Positions 3,780-37,953 of a stretch of DNA of 45,986 bases are shown piece after piece. Location of the stretch: positions 1 to 45,986 of the forward strand of contig CAVDTK010000001.1 in NCBI GenBank assembly GCA_963611755.1. The letters are read 5' to 3'. The notes under the pieces are model-generated. The model was not told the origin of the DNA. It saw nothing but the letters and a program-made list of their open reading frames with translations, and ran no database searches. The position numbers and the translations under genes are program-made. The stretch comes from Oscillibacter sp. ER4. Lineage in GTDB: Bacteria > Actinomycetota > Coriobacteriia > Coriobacteriales > Atopobiaceae. Numbering within the stretch: the first letter of the stretch is position 1; the number at the start of each line of letters is the position of its first letter.

Positions 3780-3918
3780 AAACTTCCGCCAATTTACCTC
3801 TTAATTCAGAAACACCAAGTAGGCCAGGCCTAGAAAACTCCGCGACCTGGCCTTTTGCCGCGGCAAAGGAGCGGGATACCGACAGGCTTCGCAACAAGAG
3901 GTAAATTGGCGGAAGTTT
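3780..3918. repeat. Intergenic inverted-repeat element (perfect 23-bp arms, 93-nt spacer, central CAGGT core)
   Basis: AAACTTCCGCCAATTTACCTCTT (3780-3802) and AAGAGGTAAATTGGCGGAAGTTT (3896-3918). GACCTGGCCTTTT lies at the centre. Confidence 0.9.
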
Positions 3919-3940: not shown

Positions 3941-3988
3941 ACACAAAACAGGGGCTTGTCTGATGGGAGGACATCAGACAAGCCCCTG
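3941..3988 (-). terminator. Rho-independent terminator
   Basis: Perfect 17-bp stem CAGGGGCTTGTCTGATG/CATCAGACAAGCCCCTG, followed by TTTT on the minus strand, downstream of the NmrA gene. Confidence 0.8.
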
Positions 3989-4023
3989 AATTGAAGCCCC
4001 GTTAGCGCTGCGGCGCCCCGGAC

Positions 4024-10514: not shown

Positions 10515-10583
10515 GGCGCTCCCCCGGCTACGTCGCGGTCTTCCTGCAGGACAATTCTCCCACACCAACTGCCGCCGGAGTTA

Positions 10584-10774
10584 GGCGCTCAAAAACGAGT
10601 GCATATTGGTACTTTATGCCCGCGTGCGGAGAAGCCCGACGACGTTTGCCCAGTTGATTTTTAGGTACCCCCTCCCACATTTGAGCGAAATGAGGTCTTG
10701 AAGTACCAATACCCCTGCAAAATTGAGCGCCCCTAAGCTCAAAAGCACCAATATGGCACCTAAATTGAGCGCCC
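10584..10774. repeat. Intergenic element: one inverted unit plus three direct 42-bp-period units
   Basis: TTGAGCG at 10681, 10723 and 10765. AAG(T/C)ACCAATA at 10701 and 10743. Inverted TATTGGTACTT at 10604-10614 and GGCGCTCAA at 10584. Confidence 0.8.
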
Positions 10775-10802
10775 GCAGCCCGCGAGCGCCCTGGCAGCCC
10801 GG

Positions 10803-11237
10803 CTAGATAAGCCCGGCTCCAGCAGCCAGCACGAAGATCGCGACATGCAAGACGAGAAACGCGGGCAGGCCAAAGCGGAAATACCACTTGAGGGTCTTGT
10901 GCCTAAAGACGCGCATCCCCACCATGCCGCCGAGCGCGCCGCCCAGAAGACAGGCGCCCAGCAAGGTGGCCTCGGGCACACGGCTTCTTGCCCCCGAGCC
11001 CTGGTACTTGACAGCCACCCGCTTGTCATAGCCAAACAGCGCAAAGGCCCCGACGTTAATAACGCCCAGGTAGACGGCCAGCGCGCGGTTCTGCGCCGCG
11101 GCCACAACGCAGCCCAAATCAAATCGCGCCGGCACGACCCCAAACCAGCACAGCGCCACGACCACCGCGACGATCAGTGCGTAAAGACCGCCAAACCACG
11201 CGGCAACGTTGCTCTTGTTCACGCGTCCCTTAGCCAA
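10803..11237 (-). CDS. DUF1294-domain membrane protein
   Basis: FALFGYDKR..RVPEATLL..GGALG..FRHKTLK signature. Confidence 0.85.
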   Translation of the reverse strand: MAKGRVNKSNVAAWFGGLYALIVAVVVALCWFGVVPARFDLGCVVAAAQNRALAVYLGVINVGAFALFGYDKRVAVKYQGSGARSRVPEATLLGACLLGGALGGMVGMRVFRHKTLKWYFRFGLPAFLVLHVAIFVLAAGAGLI

Positions 11238-11336
11238 AAACCATCACCTGCTGAGAATACCCATCACAAATTGATATAAAAACAGGGCGAGAAGCTCCTG
11301 AGCCCCTCGCCCCGACAACACTACCAAAAGAAAGGC

Positions 11337-12785
11337 CTAACGCTGCCCCATGGGCACGTAAACGCCACTGCCCATCACGGAGTTGTACGCCGGGCGGATG
11401 ATGCGGCCCGCGCCGTAGAGCTCCTCCATGCGGTGCGCGCACCAGCCGGCCAGGCGAGCCATGGCAAAGATCGCCGTGTACATGTCCTGGGGAATCCCCA
11501 GCATGGAGTACACGAAGCCGGTGTAGAGGTCGATGTTCGCGCAGATGGGCTTGGTGGTTCCCTTGACGTCGCGCATGACCTGGGGGCCCAGCTTCTCGAT
11601 GTTCTCAAGCAGCTGCAGCTTGGCCTGGCGGCCCTTGGCCTCGGCCAGCTTGCGCGCGTACTTCTTGATGATGACGGCGCGCGGGTCGCTCACGGTATAG
11701 ACCGCGTGCCCCAGGCCGTAGATCAGCCCGCTGCCGTCGAACCCCTGGCCCTTCACAACGCGAGTAAGATAGTCCGCCACCTCATCTTCGCTCGACCAGT
11801 CGTCGATCTTCTCGGCAGCGTCCTCGATCATGGCGCCCACCTTGGCGTTGGCGCCGCCGTGCTTGGGCCCCTTGAGCGAGCCGATGGCCGCCGCATAGGC
11901 GGAGTAGGCGTCGGTGCCCGAGGAAGAAAGGACGCGCGTGGTGAAGGTCGAGTTGTTGCCGCCGCCGTGCTCGGCGTGGAGCATCAGCATGACGTCAAGC
12001 AGCATAGCCTCGTCGTGGGTGAAGCCCTGGTCGCCGCGCAGGACGTCGAGCAGGGTCTCGGCCATCGAGAAGCCCTCGCAGGGAGGCGGGACCAGAAGCT
12101 TGGTGCCCGTGGCAGACGCGACCGCCGCCTCGTGCGCCACCGCGGCCGTGCGCGGCCAGCGGCCGAGCAGCGACAGCGCCACGTCGATCTCGTGCGTGGG
12201 GGTGGTGTCGTCGGGCGTGGGATCGAAGGAGTACAGCAGAAGCGTCGCGCGCTGCAGGACGTTCATGATGTTTTGGCTGTACGTCGTGCGCGGGAAGATG
12301 TGCAGGAAGCCCTCCGGCAGCTGGCGGCGAGAATCGATGCGTGCCTTGAAGTCGGCGAGCTGCTCTTCCGTGGGAAGGGCGCCCGTCAACAGCAAATAGG
12401 CCGCCTCCTCGTAGCCAAAACGGTCCTCTGCCTGGGCGTTGTCGATAAGGTCGGCGATGTGATAGCCGCGGTAGATCAGGTCGCCCTCATCGGGCACCAC
12501 GCCCTCGGGGGTCTTGTTGTAGCCGTGCACGTTGGAGATCGTGGTAAGGCCCACAAGCACGCCGGAGCCGTCCGCGTTGCGCAGGCCGCGCTTGACGTCG
12601 TACTTCTCGTACAGCTCGGCCGGAACGACGTCGACCTCACGGAAGCCCTGGTAGAGCCTATCGGAGACAGGCGGCAGGCCCAGGCCCACCGACGGCATGG
12701 GGTAGGCGTCGGCCACATGGGTCATGGCGGAGGTGTCGAGCGAGCTTAAGCTGGGGCCGATGCCCTTGATACCAAAGTGAGACAA
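11337..12785 (-). CDS. gltA: Citrate synthase (citrate/2-methylcitrate synthase family)
   Basis: HAEHGGGNNSTF, SLKGPKHGGAN, IYGLGHAVYTVSDPR, ANIDLY and IIRPAY. Start uncertain (TTG 12785 after AAGGAGG). Confidence 0.9.
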   Translation of the reverse strand: MSHFGIKGIGPSLSSLDTSAMTHVADAYPMPSVGLGLPPVSDRLYQGFREVDVVPAELYEKYDVKRGLRNADGSGVLVGLTTISNVHGYNKTPEGVVPDEGDLIYRGYHIADLIDNAQAEDRFGYEEAAYLLLTGALPTEEQLADFKARIDSRRQLPEGFLHIFPRTTYSQNIMNVLQRATLLLYSFDPTPDDTTPTHEIDVALSLLGRWPRTAAVAHEAAVASATGTKLLVPPPCEGFSMAETLLDVLRGDQGFTHDEAMLLDVMLMLHAEHGGGNNSTFTTRVLSSSGTDAYSAYAAAIGSLKGPKHGGANAKVGAMIEDAAEKIDDWSSEDEVADYLTRVVKGQGFDGSGLIYGLGHAVYTVSDPRAVIIKKYARKLAEAKGRQAKLQLLENIEKLGPQVMRDVKGTTKPICANIDLYTGFVYSMLGIPQDMYTAIFAMARLAGWCAHRMEELYGAGRIIRPAYNSVMGSGVYVPMGQR

Positions 12786-16846: not shown

Positions 16847-16900
16847 GCCGACGGCACAGTCCGGCAGGCCTTCGCCGGCATCTCGTCGACGCCTCGCCAG

Positions 16901-17045
16901 GCAAAAATCGAGCATCTTGGCCGACTAAATCGAATCTGCCGAGTAGACGCAAAATCAGCAACGCATCTACCTGCGGTTTTATAAAGCAAACGGGCCCGGA
17001 TACTCGTCCGGGCCCGTTTAGTCGGCCAAGATGTCGCGTTTTTGC
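16901..17045. repeat. Intergenic inverted-repeat element (perfect 17-bp arms, 87-nt spacer, central CAGGT core)
   Basis: CATCTTGGCCGACTAAA (16913-16929) and TTTAGTCGGCCAAGATG (17017-17033), outer GCAAAAA/TTTTTGC. TACCTGCGGTTTT lies at the centre. Confidence 0.88.
16988..17019. terminator. Possible bidirectional terminator hairpin between convergent genes
   Basis: 13-bp stem AAACGGGCCCGGA/TCCGGGCCCGTTT. Confidence 0.6.
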
Positions 17046-17089
17046 TCCGAGCGGCGGGAATCACCCCTATCCGCGGCGGGAACGGTCCC

Positions 17090-19129
17090 TTATCCGCAGC
17101 AGGCGATGACCCACTGGATGAGGTTCGAGGTCGCGGACCCCGAGCGCTCGGCCAGCACGTGGCCCTGGCCCCAGACGGGCGTGTAGGCCACATCGGCCAC
17201 GCCGTCGTACTTGGACAGCGCGAAGACCAGGTTGGCGGCCATGCAGGCAGAGGCGTCGGTGTCGAGAAGCCCCTCGTTGATGCGCCAGTGCGGGGCCACG
17301 CTCGCCTGGCCGTAGCCGCCGTAGTGGCCGGAGAGCCAATAGAGCGGGTTCATCATCGAGACGCGCGTAGCCATGTCGGTGTCGAGCGAGTCGGTCTTCT
17401 CGAGGTCGTCGTCCCAGTCGGTGATATAGGAGGTCACCCAGTCGGTCGCGGCCATGAACTGCGTCGCGTTCTTCTCGATAAGCTGGCCGATGGTCTCGTC
17501 GAAGTGCAGGGTCGACTCCTCACCGATGCCAAAGAGCTGGTTGGACCTGGAGCTCCTGTCCGGGCGGTCGTAAGGGGCGGCCTTGAGCTTGGCGCTGCGC
17601 AGGTGGATGGCGTAGTCGCGCAGGCTCGAGACCGAGACGCTCTGCTTGCGCAGGTTGTAGTTGATCCACCAGTAGTCTGCGTTGAGCTCGGAGAAGTACG
17701 TCTGGGCCGAGTCGTAGATCGTGGACTGGACCTGGGTAGCGCCCGTCGCGGTGGTGGTGGCAACCGTCGTCGCGGCGGCGGTGGCGGCGCTCACCGCAGT
17801 CGTGGTCACGCCCGTGCCGTCGGCCGCGTCGGTCGCCGCGGCAGAGCCGTCATCGGCCACGGTGGTCGTCGTGGTCGTGGTGGTCGTGCCGGTCGTCGAG
17901 GTCGTGCCGGTGGCGCTCGTCGTGCCCGTGACCAGGTTCTGGCCGGCCGTGGCGGCCTCGGCGGCGCGGGCCGTCAACAGGTTGGGGTCGCCCGGGAAGC
18001 TCGGCTCGTCCACGCGCTGCGGCGTGTAGGTGTACGGGAAGGGCGTGTTCTGCACGAACCACGTGGCCGCATCGTCGATGTTGGCGAGAAGCGCCGTGGC
18101 GTAGCTGCCCATCGTGTAGCAACCGCCCTCGGTCTCGTCCAAGGTGAGCTGCTCGTCGTCGACGCCGCGAAAGTCCATCTGGTTGACGTACTCGCCGTAA
18201 GAGGCGGCGAGCGCCGTCGACAAGCCGGACATCCAGGAGCCCTCGGCGCGCGTGTCCTCGGTCGAGTACTGGCCGCAGGACCACTCATAGGCCGCGTCGG
18301 CGGTGTCGTAGGAGGTCACGGGGCACCACGAAGCGCTGCCCGCGATGGCATCGGAGATAGCGTTGCCCTTGGCGTCGTGGGTCACGGCGCCGATGGAGGA
18401 CAGATAGGGCTCGTAGAGGGACGACCCGCCCGAGGAGCCCAGGACCGCGGACACGCCGCCGCCCGCGCCGAAGCCAAAGACAAAGATGCGCGAGGCGTCG
18501 CACGGCAGGCTCTCCGCGTTGTATCGCAGGTAGCGGATGGCGGCCTTAAGGTCGACCACCGGCCAGGGCGCGCCGCCGGGGAACAGCTCGTTCTTGCCGC
18601 TGGCCGTGTCGTAGCCGGCGCTCCTGCCCCTGAAGCCCGCGTACACGTAGATGCAGCCGGCGGAAAGATACGGCGCCAGGCCCTCGTAGGAGTAGGCGGT
18701 GGGGCTCGTCTGCGCGGCCAGGGTCGCGGTGTTGATGGGCATGAGCACCGGAGCGGTGGCCGCGGTGAAGTTGCCCACGACGGCCTTCTCGTCCACCGTG
18801 CAGGTGTAGGAGTTGCCGTTCTTCTCGCCCTTGAAATAGTCGCCGGGCACAAAGATGGCCAGCGACTCGTAGGTCGTGGTGGCCGGGTCCAGGCAGTACG
18901 CAAGGCCCAGCTGGTAGTAGACGTTGTTGTCCTCGTCGTACTTCCAAGACCCCATGTTGATGGCCAGGTCCTTGAACTCCTCGAGGTTCACGTCCGGCTG
19001 GCTGGACTGGTCGTCGGCCGAGGACTGCTGGTTGCTCTGGCTGTTGCCCGCCCTGGAGCAGCCGGCAAGCCCTGCCGCCGCCGCGCCCGTCGAGGCCATG
19101 GCCAGGAATTCTCTTCTGGTAAAGCCCAT
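17090..19129 (-). CDS. Tat-exported lipoprotein, subtype A tannase-like alpha/beta hydrolase fold
   Basis: TRREFL Tat motif, LAGC lipobox, VYYQLGLAYCLDP, GAPWPVVDLKAAIRYLRYN and VWGQGH; Thr-rich internal insert. Confidence 0.75.
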   Translation of the reverse strand: MGFTRREFLAMASTGAAAAGLAGCSRAGNSQSNQQSSADDQSSQPDVNLEEFKDLAINMGSWKYDEDNNVYYQLGLAYCLDPATTTYESLAIFVPGDYFKGEKNGNSYTCTVDEKAVVGNFTAATAPVLMPINTATLAAQTSPTAYSYEGLAPYLSAGCIYVYAGFRGRSAGYDTASGKNELFPGGAPWPVVDLKAAIRYLRYNAESLPCDASRIFVFGFGAGGGVSAVLGSSGGSSLYEPYLSSIGAVTHDAKGNAISDAIAGSASWCPVTSYDTADAAYEWSCGQYSTEDTRAEGSWMSGLSTALAASYGEYVNQMDFRGVDDEQLTLDETEGGCYTMGSYATALLANIDDAATWFVQNTPFPYTYTPQRVDEPSFPGDPNLLTARAAEAATAGQNLVTGTTSATGTTSTTGTTTTTTTTTVADDGSAAATDAADGTGVTTTAVSAATAAATTVATTTATGATQVQSTIYDSAQTYFSELNADYWWINYNLRKQSVSVSSLRDYAIHLRSAKLKAAPYDRPDRSSRSNQLFGIGEESTLHFDETIGQLIEKNATQFMAATDWVTSYITDWDDDLEKTDSLDTDMATRVSMMNPLYWLSGHYGGYGQASVAPHWRINEGLLDTDASACMAANLVFALSKYDGVADVAYTPVWGQGHVLAERSGSATSNLIQWVIACCG

Positions 19130-26553: not shown

Positions 26554-26660
26554 GCCCGAGAAACGCCCCGGCCCTGGGTCTTCTCGGCAAAGTGCTTCTG
26601 AGCGCGCTCTTTGCGCGAGGTCACTTTGCGAGAAGCCCAGGGTCGGGGCATTTCTCGGGC
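26554..26660. repeat. Long (~40-bp stem) imperfect palindrome between convergent genes
   Basis: GCCCGAGAAACGCCCCGGCCCTGGGTCTTCTCGGCAAAGTG and CACTTTGCGAGAAGCCCAGGGTCGGGGCATTTCTCGGGC. Confidence 0.8.
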
Positions 26661-36721: not shown

Positions 36722-37780
36722 TTAACGACCCAAGGTCGACCAATCGATAAAGAGTTCGCGACGAAGCTCGTTTTGGGCCTCTAGCTGGCGCTTGCTCTTC
36801 TTGCGGCGGGGCAAGCCGGTCTTCTCGGCCACGATATTCAGCACCGCATCGAAAGAGGCGACGTCGAAGACCTGATCGAAGGTAAGAAGGATGACCTCGT
36901 AGCCCATGCTCATGAGCGCGGTCGTGCGGTTGGAGTCCGAGATCGAGGCGGCCTCGCCTGCGTGGACCGAGCGGCCCTGGCACTCGATGATCACGCCCGC
37001 GCTTTGGGACTTGCCCTCTATCAGGATGTCTGCGTAGCAGCATTCATGCGGGTAGATCCTCTTTGCCGCCGGGGTCAGGCGGATACGCTGGTTGTTCTTG
37101 ATGGCCAGGCCTTCGCCGCCGACCGACCTCGGCAACCCCAGGAGCATGGACGTTTGCGCCTCGAAGGGCGACGCGGTCACGCCGGTGAGCTGTGAGGCGC
37201 ACCAGCGCAGGTTCTTGACGCCGTGGAAGTTTGGAACTTCATCGCAGAAGCCAGCGAGCTCCTCGCGAGTGAGCAGCGGCGGACGGCGCCAAAGGTTTGT
37301 GCCAGCGTCATCGACGTTCTTGACGCGGCGCCAGCCCTCTCCCGGAAGGATAAAGCCTTGGCGCTCGGCCTCCCTGAGCTGGGCTTCCGCGCGGTCGCAC
37401 GGGTTGAACACCGCGAAATCGCCTGTCATCTCGAAGGCGGCCATAAGCAGATCGATGCGCGAGACGCTTCGCGCCAGGGTGAGCAGGGTCGCCGCAGGCG
37501 AGGTCACCGAAAAGCCGAAATCGGTCTCAAACACCGACCCAAACGGCAGGTCGCCCTTGATGTAATGCGAGTCATAGAGCTTCGTCACCCCATGATCCGC
37601 CATCTTAAATACAACTCGATGGATCGGTGTTTCAAGAAGATCGGAAACTATCGGCGAAGCAGCCAACTTCAAGTGATTCGAATCCTCATACGCAAATGGC
37701 AACGGAGGATACAGCCCGACTATTTGGGGCGGAACTCGATAGAAGCGTAAAGCGGTTGGCCCGCAAAGCGTGATGTCCAT
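36722..37780 (-). CDS. AbiEi-like / DUF559 (Vsr-like PD-(D/E)xK) putative endonuclease
   Basis: Central VTSPAATLLTLA; C-terminal SPFE, YADIL, IIECQG..H and D..R..AL..MGYEVILLT. 5' half is visibly more AT-rich than the neighbours. Confidence 0.72.
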   Translation of the reverse strand: MDITLCGPTALRFYRVPPQIVGLYPPLPFAYEDSNHLKLAASPIVSDLLETPIHRVVFKMADHGVTKLYDSHYIKGDLPFGSVFETDFGFSVTSPAATLLTLARSVSRIDLLMAAFEMTGDFAVFNPCDRAEAQLREAERQGFILPGEGWRRVKNVDDAGTNLWRRPPLLTREELAGFCDEVPNFHGVKNLRWCASQLTGVTASPFEAQTSMLLGLPRSVGGEGLAIKNNQRIRLTPAAKRIYPHECCYADILIEGKSQSAGVIIECQGRSVHAGEAASISDSNRTTALMSMGYEVILLTFDQVFDVASFDAVLNIVAEKTGLPRRKKSKRQLEAQNELRRELFIDWSTLGR

Positions 37781-37827
37781 AGCGCCCCGTCCCAAAGACC
37801 ATTTTGGCTCACAGTGCCATCATTCTT

Positions 37828-37953
37828 ACGAAAGTTGGGACCAGTTTAAGCAATCAGCAAGTAGAACGGTCGAATCAACCAAGAAACCGCAGGTCAATTC
37901 AAGCAAAAAGTACCGTGTACTCAGCAAACGGCTAAACTGATCCCAACTTTCGT
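37828..37953. repeat. Inverted-repeat element (21-bp arms, 1 mismatch, 84-nt spacer, central CAGGT core) upstream of the nuclease gene
   Basis: ACGAAAGTTGGGACCAGTTTA (37828-37848) and TAAACTGATCCCAACTTTCGT (37933-37953). AAACCGCAGGTCA lies at the centre. Confidence 0.9.

Follow-up and report, generated by a model that had tools for sequence, protein, structure and literature searches.

The stretch of DNA analysed here (45,986 nt, hereafter the window) comes from a coriobacterial genome (G000) and contains a gene for a nuclease-like protein that is immediately preceded by a long inverted repeat, while similar repeats without any gene lie elsewhere in the same stretch. The question raised by this locus is whether the gene and the repeats belong to one system and, if they do, what the protein does to the repeats. 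The earlier note on this DNA proposed that the protein might mobilise the repeats, in the manner of the RAYT proteins that accompany REPIN elements, or bind them as DNA or as a structured non-coding RNA. The gene and the repeats can be taken with high confidence to form a real unit. The explanation that appears to account best for this unit, to which we assign a probability of slightly under 0.6, is a domesticated system of nuclease and repeats, similar to RAYT/REPIN in the way it works yet unrelated to it, which would operate by nicking and conversion.

The window gene, its protein and its element

The gene is flanked by genes for a PcsB-coiled-coil protein and an EamA transporter, both intact, and no match to the AbiEii or methylase families was detected among the ORFs scanned around it, in agreement with the earlier remark that neither partner is present. 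The AT-richer 5' half that was pointed out at the same time is real as well, with a GC content of 54.7% in the 5' 380 bp and 63.0% in the remainder. The description of the product as an AbiEi/DUF559-like nuclease survives in part. At the level of sequence profiles, the matches of the 352-aa protein to MTES_1575 (E 0.003, 18.1 bits) and DUF559 (E 0.005, 17.1 bits) fall below the curated Pfam cut-offs (38.2 and 20.6 bits, respectively) and Pfam AbiEi is not matched at all; AbiEi_1 is found in one of 20 proteins of the family, with E 0.041. PADLOC yields no match in the same number of family proteins, and NCBIfam nothing relevant. The Vsr/DUF559 part of the description is supported by the fold and by invariant catalytic residues.

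The AlphaFold2 model of the protein (pLDDT 90) consists of two domains. A Foldseek search against the PDB gave nothing at E ≤0.001. The predicted structure of residues 204-323 best matches the catalytic domain of I-Bth0305I (Z 9.8, rmsd 2.4, 95 aligned residues), followed by Vsr (Z 8.9) and the DUF559 protein NGO0050 (Z 8.6). Six residues of this domain, E207, D251, E266, H273, D282 and R285, are invariant in all 91 long-clade homologues, so that the active site is under selection. Four of them, E207, D251, H273 and D282, would make up the catalytic set E, D, H, D of this nuclease fold. Judging by position, D251, H273 and D282 would be the counterparts of the catalytic residues D51/H69/D97 of Vsr and D196/H213/D222 of I-Bth0305I that are given in the accessible part of PMC3239194. 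The top match of residues 1-199 is AbiEi (6y8q residues 67-195, Z 6.9, rmsd 3.6, 119 aligned residues, 7% identity), with Rv2827c next (Z 4.8). Residue 1 of the protein aligns with residue 67 of AbiEi, and the N-terminal winged helix is absent. The likeness to AbiEi is one of modelled fold, and it extends over the antitoxin domain at the C-terminus of AbiEi but not over the winged helix that binds DNA.

A homodimer joined through the nuclease domains is predicted with a score of 0.45, compared with 0.02 for the best control, with contact agreement of at least 84% between runs and pLDDT of at least 87; of 30 solved pairs, 20 attain the mark set for this score, compared with one of 23 single chains. 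I-Bth0305I, according to the same partly accessible source (PMC3239194), dimerises via its nuclease domain, and the score may therefore reflect likeness to solved Vsr-like dimers. The family to which the protein belongs is large, with 2,780 clusters at 50% identity (E up to 1e-30; Actinomycetota in the Atlas) and up to 17 matches per genome; the fusion proteins are 320-400 aa long. The accessible part of PMC3424549 gives Vsr repair and homing as the only functions associated with DUF559.

Features of the window that bear on the gene and its repeats (positions are those of the window)
Feature	Position	Strand	Remarks
Nuclease-fusion gene	36722..37780	-	352 aa; AbiEi-CTD-like domain + Vsr/EDxHD-fold nuclease (modelled)
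Residues 1-199, AbiEi C-terminal-domain-like fold (modelled)	37184..37780	-	no winged helix ahead
Residues 46-85, highest variability; candidate arm-specificity determinant	37526..37645	-	
Residues 204-323, Vsr/I-Bth0305I-like nuclease domain; predicted dimer interface	36812..37171	-	E207, D251, E266, H273, D282, R285
Leader from element to ATG, 47 nt	37781..37827	-	
Gene-linked element, 126 bp between arm ends	37828..37953	.	AAACCGCAGGTCA at centre
Gene-proximal arm, 21 bp	37828..37848	+	
Inner GAGTAG-type box (AAGTAG)	37859..37864	+	
Centred asymmetric core	37888..37894	-	ACCTGCG on the gene's strand
Inverted inner box, degenerate (GAGTAC)	37917..37922	-	
Gene-distal arm, 21 bp	37933..37953	-	one mismatch
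Gene-free element, family A, 23-bp arms	3780..3918	.	arms = those flanking paralogue C72:1604-2776
Cluster of family-E arms	10584..10775	.	same arms beside paralogue C23:20005-21015; without fixed interior
Gene-free element, family B	16902..17044	.	near-identical arms flank C33-clade gene in G005

The element upstream of the gene has the length, arms, central core and distance from the ATG that had been read from the sequence, with a single arm mismatch (Table). The further claim that the same architecture recurs without a gene near positions 3780 and 16901 holds as well, these two being doublets that agree with it in geometry and differ from it in their arms, and the copy at 10584, described as weaker, is an arm cluster. 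A short doublet similar to family G (with arms of the type of the C23:4612 paralogue) adjoins the first of these elements at 3945-3990. Within the element at 16902, a GC-rich hairpin followed by T's (16990-17020) could be a recruited terminator, and interiors like that of this element also occur in the related genomes G003, G006 and G013.

Repeat families and their genes

The genome holds 15 paralogues of the gene, two of them truncated by contig ends, with products 20-33% identical to the window protein, and at least 12 of the 15 adjoin a repeat family of their own, the remaining three lying outside the seed search. Nine families are fixed-length doublets with 64 copies in total (for example, 121 bp in 12 of 14 copies, or 137 bp in nine of nine), compared with zero or one match for reversed-seed controls of these nine. 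Shorter paralogues pair with shorter, tandem REP-like repeats that comprise up to 181 arms. Across the doublets, inverted GAGTAG-type boxes stand 65 bp apart around a centred core of the ACCTGCG type: the box is found at -32/-33 from the doublet centre in 48 of the 64 copies, its inverse, ending at +32/+33, in 50, and the core A[CA]CTG[CG]R, with at most one mismatch, at the centre of all 64. No published identity of this core motif was found. Beyond the boxes and the core, the sequence of the interior varies freely. As judged with a crude gene caller, 63 of the 64 doublets are intergenic.

The family of the window gene has five orphans in the genome (on contigs C14, C54, twice, C24 and C29). 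The earlier suggestion to compare orphan arms with paralogue loci proved productive, given that two of the gene-free sites in the window match arms next to paralogues in the same genome, at C72 and C23:20005, and the third those of a related gene in G005. The gene cognate to this third family, B, is missing from the assembly of the window genome (97% complete), and so are the genes for four more of the nine fixed-geometry families (Bq, K, M and Q); these absences count against a strict coupling of genes and repeats. Arms similar to those of B, M and Q flank genes in relatives. Elements of different families, B and C in particular, are often arranged in tandem clusters (C36:12035-12912 and C24:12900-13700, as well as on C2, C11, C29, C43, C46, C121 and C159).

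Among 19 genomes of the genus, an inverted element of 120-145 bp adjoins 92 of the 96 long-clade loci, compared with 15 of 300 random windows, so that the expectation that coriobacterial homologues carry flanking elements is borne out. The element is upstream in 85 of 91 loci and downstream in 69 of 92, and where both sides have one, the two share at least an 8-mer in 59 of 62 loci. The core is present in 71 of the 85 upstream and 61 of the 69 downstream elements, and the similarity of the arms climbs from 4.9 to 19.6 as protein identity goes from 20% to 90%. The elements have a rigid interior in common and arms that track the protein tree, which is the combination of paralogue-specific arms and shared core that the earlier note had envisaged.

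The distribution of the families follows that of the genes. The doublet pattern of the window gene is found in 10 of the 19 genomes, with 3-26 copies each, and in none of the other nine; the gene itself, at ≥60% identity, is carried by exactly this set of 10. This and the next two counts are not independent tests because the patterns were built on arms next to genes in these very genomes, which secures one match per genome by construction, and because the genomes are kin. Two other clades, C33 and C72, are distributed differently. The pattern of the C33 clade occurs in seven of eight gene-bearing genomes, the miss being a variant outside the definition of the pattern, and in one of 11 others (G014, 67% complete). 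The pattern of the C72 clade occurs in six of eight and in none of 11, and one of its misses is the arm of the window genome itself, which the specification of the pattern left out. In an rpoB tree of 18 genomes, with G014 left out, three sister-group contrasts for the coupling between the window gene and its doublet pattern can be drawn: G004 against G001/G016, G010 against G007 (87% complete) and the G000 clade against G009/G018.

The inner module shared by the families is absent from all five genomes without a detected homologue, rare (3-4 matches) where a single long-clade gene is present and common (58-61 matches) in G003 and G006; in G021 and G031, homologues are present and the module is unmatched. 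Among named genomes, for which 80 of at least 120 loci were listed, it is found in Collinsella, Olsenella, Enorma, Atopobium, Senegalimassilia, Parolsenella and Paratractidigestivibacter; records titled as other phyla have unverified submitter labels and are not counted as spread beyond Coriobacteriia. Among the matches listed, 78 of 82 inner modules have flanking arms, compared with 83 of 1,997 mixed-flank controls. Outside the order, in a comparison of 38 loci from which L090 and L094, of unpublished genomes, were left out, homologues have at most short inverted doublets (for example, L083 and L085), never this geometry.

Gene movement and the evolution of arms

The gene is not conserved at the window locus, contrary to the vertical conservation that, in the earlier note, would have refuted its proposal. 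Eight orthologues (69-73% identity) reside at another locus that adjoins a cupin gene and/or its partner, six of them sharing both neighbours and two sharing one; at this cupin-type locus, the window genome has a gene for a 603-aa AAA_14 ATPase between another inverted pair. At the window site, in turn, a gene-free element that belongs to the family of the window gene and is oriented alike is present in G002, G003, G005 and G006; G013 has half an arm, G009 and G018 have nothing, and two more regions are uninformative. The interior of the window element is 43-59% identical to the gene-linked copy and 51-58% to the orphan at this site, which fits descent from either. Genes of the C33 clade are found at three loci, and the window genome keeps orphans at the two that it leaves unoccupied. 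The gene tree rejects the species clade in the AU test with p 0.004 (p 0.056 without the window genome), for groups that were drawn from the rpoB tree once a first nuclease tree was already known; given this conflict, arrival by transfer is as likely as relocation. On the evidence of locus comparison, the genes have moved or been exchanged between sites marked by elements. The elements may also mark insertion sites of cargo. A gene for an HTH + Fic-like product, a family recognised by eye, is inserted beside the orphan element at the window site in G006 (L037, intact) and in G003 (L034, decayed), and a small membrane-protein gene lies between two elements on contig C73 of G006.

The idea of a mobiliser comparable to RAYT retains the analogy of layout; direct traces of mobility, namely, target-site duplications, circles and fresh insertions, were not found. 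Flanking direct repeats show no excess around 61 elements (mean 4.75, compared with 4.91 after shuffling), the copies being old, and no circle consisting of gene plus element was detected. Two circular plasmid records of 1.6-1.8 kb from Collinsella aerofaciens, considered as excised circles, turned out to be the two halves of an IS-broken gene with no element. The search for empty sites in related strains, which the earlier note had recommended, produced one close case, G006 against G003, and this was discarded as a pre-insertion site because it looks like a microhomology deletion. A metagenome scan with the family-A arm returned zero matches, and there were thus no empty sites from the same species to compare. 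Mobilisation of the elements by the nuclease is suggested by their distribution.

In the C33 family, orphan arms are closer to the gene-linked arm of their own genome, with a mean of 1.55 differences compared with 3.80 for those of other genomes (74 arms; 0 of 5,000 permutations). One orphan that is orthologous between G003 and G006, with only the left flank shared at 94.6% identity, differs at 10 of 32 arm positions and at one of 89 interior positions. The arms of the orphan at the window site also differ between these two genomes, each matching the gene-linked type of its own genome. Among 28 G003/G006 pairs, four had no anchor and four failed the flank filter; of the 20 that passed, two show such a symmetric multi-base switch of arms and most inherited their arms unchanged. 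Overall divergence is 6.4% for arms (inflated by one misregistered pair), 5.2% for interiors and 4.8% for flanks.

On the side of the protein, residues 46-85 are the most variable (pN 0.31, compared with 0.10-0.19 elsewhere) and, with overall identity removed, are the best predictor of arm similarity (partial rho 0.38 and 0.31; 352 pairs), with residues 301-325 giving a partial rho of 0.34 in the same set of pairs. The G003 and G006 orthologues, which have different arms, are 96% identical in residues 81-351 and 56% in residues 36-80. Synonymous divergence shows that the 5' part of the gene was exchanged by recombination; such an exchange would carry the upstream element along, so that linkage is an alternative to specificity residing in residues 46-85.

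In the reading that we favour, each paralogue would own one repeat family. A dimer joined at the nuclease domains would read the two arms with its N-terminal domains, with residues ~46-85 as the candidate determinant of arm specificity. A common host factor on the centred core would bend the DNA and bring the arms together, a geometry that would account for the fixed spacing. The IHF site inside the Escherichia coli BIME-1 is a parallel to a core bound by a bending host factor. A nick or break at the bound element could then initiate short-patch recombination that keeps the arms matched to the resident protein; now and then, the same process would seed new copies and allow the gene to enter or leave element sites. 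The expectation for a nuclease that cuts its own sites is that they are driven to escape, not to converge, which speaks against this scheme unless the nicks are rare and repaired.

A bolder version, which we put forward tentatively and regard as rather doubtful, is a new kind of domesticated element in which the Vsr-fold nuclease, its specificity segment being exchangeable, would bring the two arms of the host-factor-bent site into synapsis and rewrite their sequence on the spot. Old repeats would then take on the sequence of the resident protein and offer a place to land to the gene and perhaps to cargo genes as well. If this were true, the family would comprise thousands of sequence-specific nucleases, a library diversified by nature in which the target of each could be read beside its gene.

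Alternative readings and known systems

Part of these observations would also follow if the protein only bound its sites. As a DNA-binding protein similar to AbiEi, it would use the arms as operators or to organise the chromosome; selection for binding, be it in regulation, termination, DNA structure or the recruitment of repair, would keep the dispersed copies, and the nuclease would act elsewhere or locally. AbiEi proteins bind inverted repeats at their own promoters and bend the DNA, as described in the accessible part of PMC7319586. A -10-like TAnnnT box lies ~10 nt past the arm in eight of the nine leaders compared (not in the window copy), which places the arm over the -35 position, and the proximal arm may accordingly be an operator as it is for AbiEi. 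The elements are mostly inherited at fixed sites and are enriched between convergent genes, where 19 of the 35 classifiable doublets are located, compared with 72 of 368 intergenic regions overall. An autoregulatory role of the gene-proximal arm is probable under our preferred reading as well. As a full account, binding without conversion appears unlikely: the protein has no AbiEi winged helix, elements occur downstream of the gene too, and ten coordinated arm changes next to a near-identical interior are hard to reach by point mutation. Furthermore, one and the same intergenic site can hold different families depending on the genome, which argues against a gene-specific regulon; at window positions 16850-17090 and the orthologous sites, family B is present in the window genome, an H-like tandem cluster in G002 and G013 and no more than a hairpin in G006.

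A selfish, homing-like cassette, in which the gene is the mobile unit, the elements its landing pads and the orphans scars of recombination between flanking copies, is improbable to a greater degree. The homing endonuclease I-Bth0305I is the nearest fold, the window gene occupies a site where four relatives keep a gene-free element of its own family, the three loci of the C33 clade behave in the same manner, and the gene tree conflicts with the species tree. These points have to be set against the regular occurrence of one copy per clade per genome, with paralogues only 20-50% alike, and against the 10-26 orphans per family, which would require an equal number of hops. Furthermore, no relative was confirmed in viral contigs, and the three plasmid matches are partial, two of them being fragments of the IS-broken gene.

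Transcription of the element into a structured RNA that the protein binds, as a guide or in an antitoxin-like manner, is very improbable. The window element forms a long hairpin (z -8.3 relative to shuffles on the gene's strand) and the arms covary, with compensatory changes in 17 of 20 pairs and 87.7% pairing. The arms are 89-96% Watson-Crick, however, with G.U no commoner than A.C; pairing in the interior (25-30%) is close to the background of 21-26% obtained by sliding, with linkers that are partly symmetric; it is the length that is conserved and not the pairing; and Rfam has no match in the window. The structured-RNA option of the earlier note is accordingly not borne out. A fixed length combined with a free sequence suggests a protein-binding geometry on double-stranded DNA, and the pairing statistics favour such a site over an RNA. 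The least probable alternative is that an ordinary DDE transposase mobilises the elements in trans as MITEs, with the nuclease genes as cargo. This would fit the size, the terminal inverted repeats and the IS1595-type transposase fragment in the window; against it, flanking direct repeats show no excess around these old copies, interiors are not conserved among copies, the arms track the nuclease tree and the presence of a family tracks that of the nuclease gene.

The domesticated nuclease-plus-repeat system that remains preferred resembles in layout the REPIN-RAYT (REPtron) and TIRtron/TIRYT arrangements, in which, according to the accessible parts of 10.1101/2021.07.10.451892 and PMC3733652, a usually single-copy enzyme gene is flanked by cognate inverted repeats, and extragenic doublets of ~100 bp with conserved arms and a variable spacer form several gene-specific families per genome and depend on the gene. 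Three features of REPIN-RAYT have their counterpart here, namely, genes flanked by cognate repeats (92 of 96 loci), dispersed extragenic doublets with conserved arms and a variable spacer (64 doublets in nine families, 63 of them intergenic) and repeats that follow the gene (10 of 10 genomes with the gene, 0 of nine without, alongside five families with no gene in the assembly). There are differences as well. The enzyme is a Vsr/PD-(D/E)xK-fold protein fused to an AbiEi-CTD-like domain, according to the model, whereas RAYT is an HUH/Y1 tyrosine transposase; the arms are not short hairpins themselves, and the spacer is of fixed length with common boxes and a centred core; and the genes pass from one locus or species to another, in contrast to the vertical inheritance described for RAYTs. 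The system works like a REPtron and is not one; if layout were the sole yardstick, it would count as a REPtron/TIRtron variant.

Likeness to other known systems is confined to individual parts. In the model, the catalytic fold and residues are those of I-Bth0305I and Vsr, and the predicted dimer is formed through the nuclease domain as in I-Bth0305I (accessible part of PMC3239194). Unlike the EDxHD homing endonucleases, the protein is encoded by a free-standing gene with no intron or intein, has no NUMOD/HTH N-terminus and is encoded beside, not within, its putative site; unlike Vsr, it has no methylase partner. Residues 1-199 may resemble the C-terminal domain of the type IV antitoxins AbiEi and Rv2827c, with which the locus shares an inverted repeat that overlaps the likely promoter; these lack the added nuclease domain, AbiEi has a winged helix and an adjoining AbiEii toxin, and the arms described here are ~85 bp apart and dispersed genome-wide. 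MITEs are likewise short, non-coding and dispersed, with terminal inverted repeats; here, no conserved interior, target duplication or link to a DDE transposase was found.

Literature linking this nuclease family to repeats was not found in a search in which subscription journals were little covered, and the combination of parts has no counterpart among the families that were found, so that the gene-plus-repeat system of gut-type Coriobacteriia looks undescribed. Pairing of genes with elements, fixed geometry, an intact active site, dispersed gene-free copies and the coupling of families to genes across genomes are all shown by comparison of sequences. A large unannotated protein family thereby gains a precise candidate substrate, the arm beside each gene, and the protein-arm pairs could be a natural recognition code. 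The REPIN/RAYT arrangement would have arisen a second time, independently and with a different chemistry, and the system bears on the host role of repeat-enzyme pairs and on the upkeep of repeats with variable interiors.

Other repeats in the window and its relatives are of separate interest. Three 32-nt direct repeats preceded by a ACCTGCGG core occupy positions 1913-2012, directly after the IS1595-type transposase fragment (~821-1868), and one similar copy is found elsewhere in the genome. A conserved long palindromic intergenic element lies upstream of citrate synthase orthologues in four relatives (L193-L196) and is absent at the corresponding window positions 10515-11337; it could be a repeat family or an RNA. 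Positions 26554-26660 hold a member of another inverted-repeat family, with eight copies, GC-rich variable arms and a conserved centre. The AAA_14 ATPase gene at the cupin-type locus is bracketed by two members of this family (C110:60-167 and 2165-2269), and is possibly part of a second gene-plus-repeat system.
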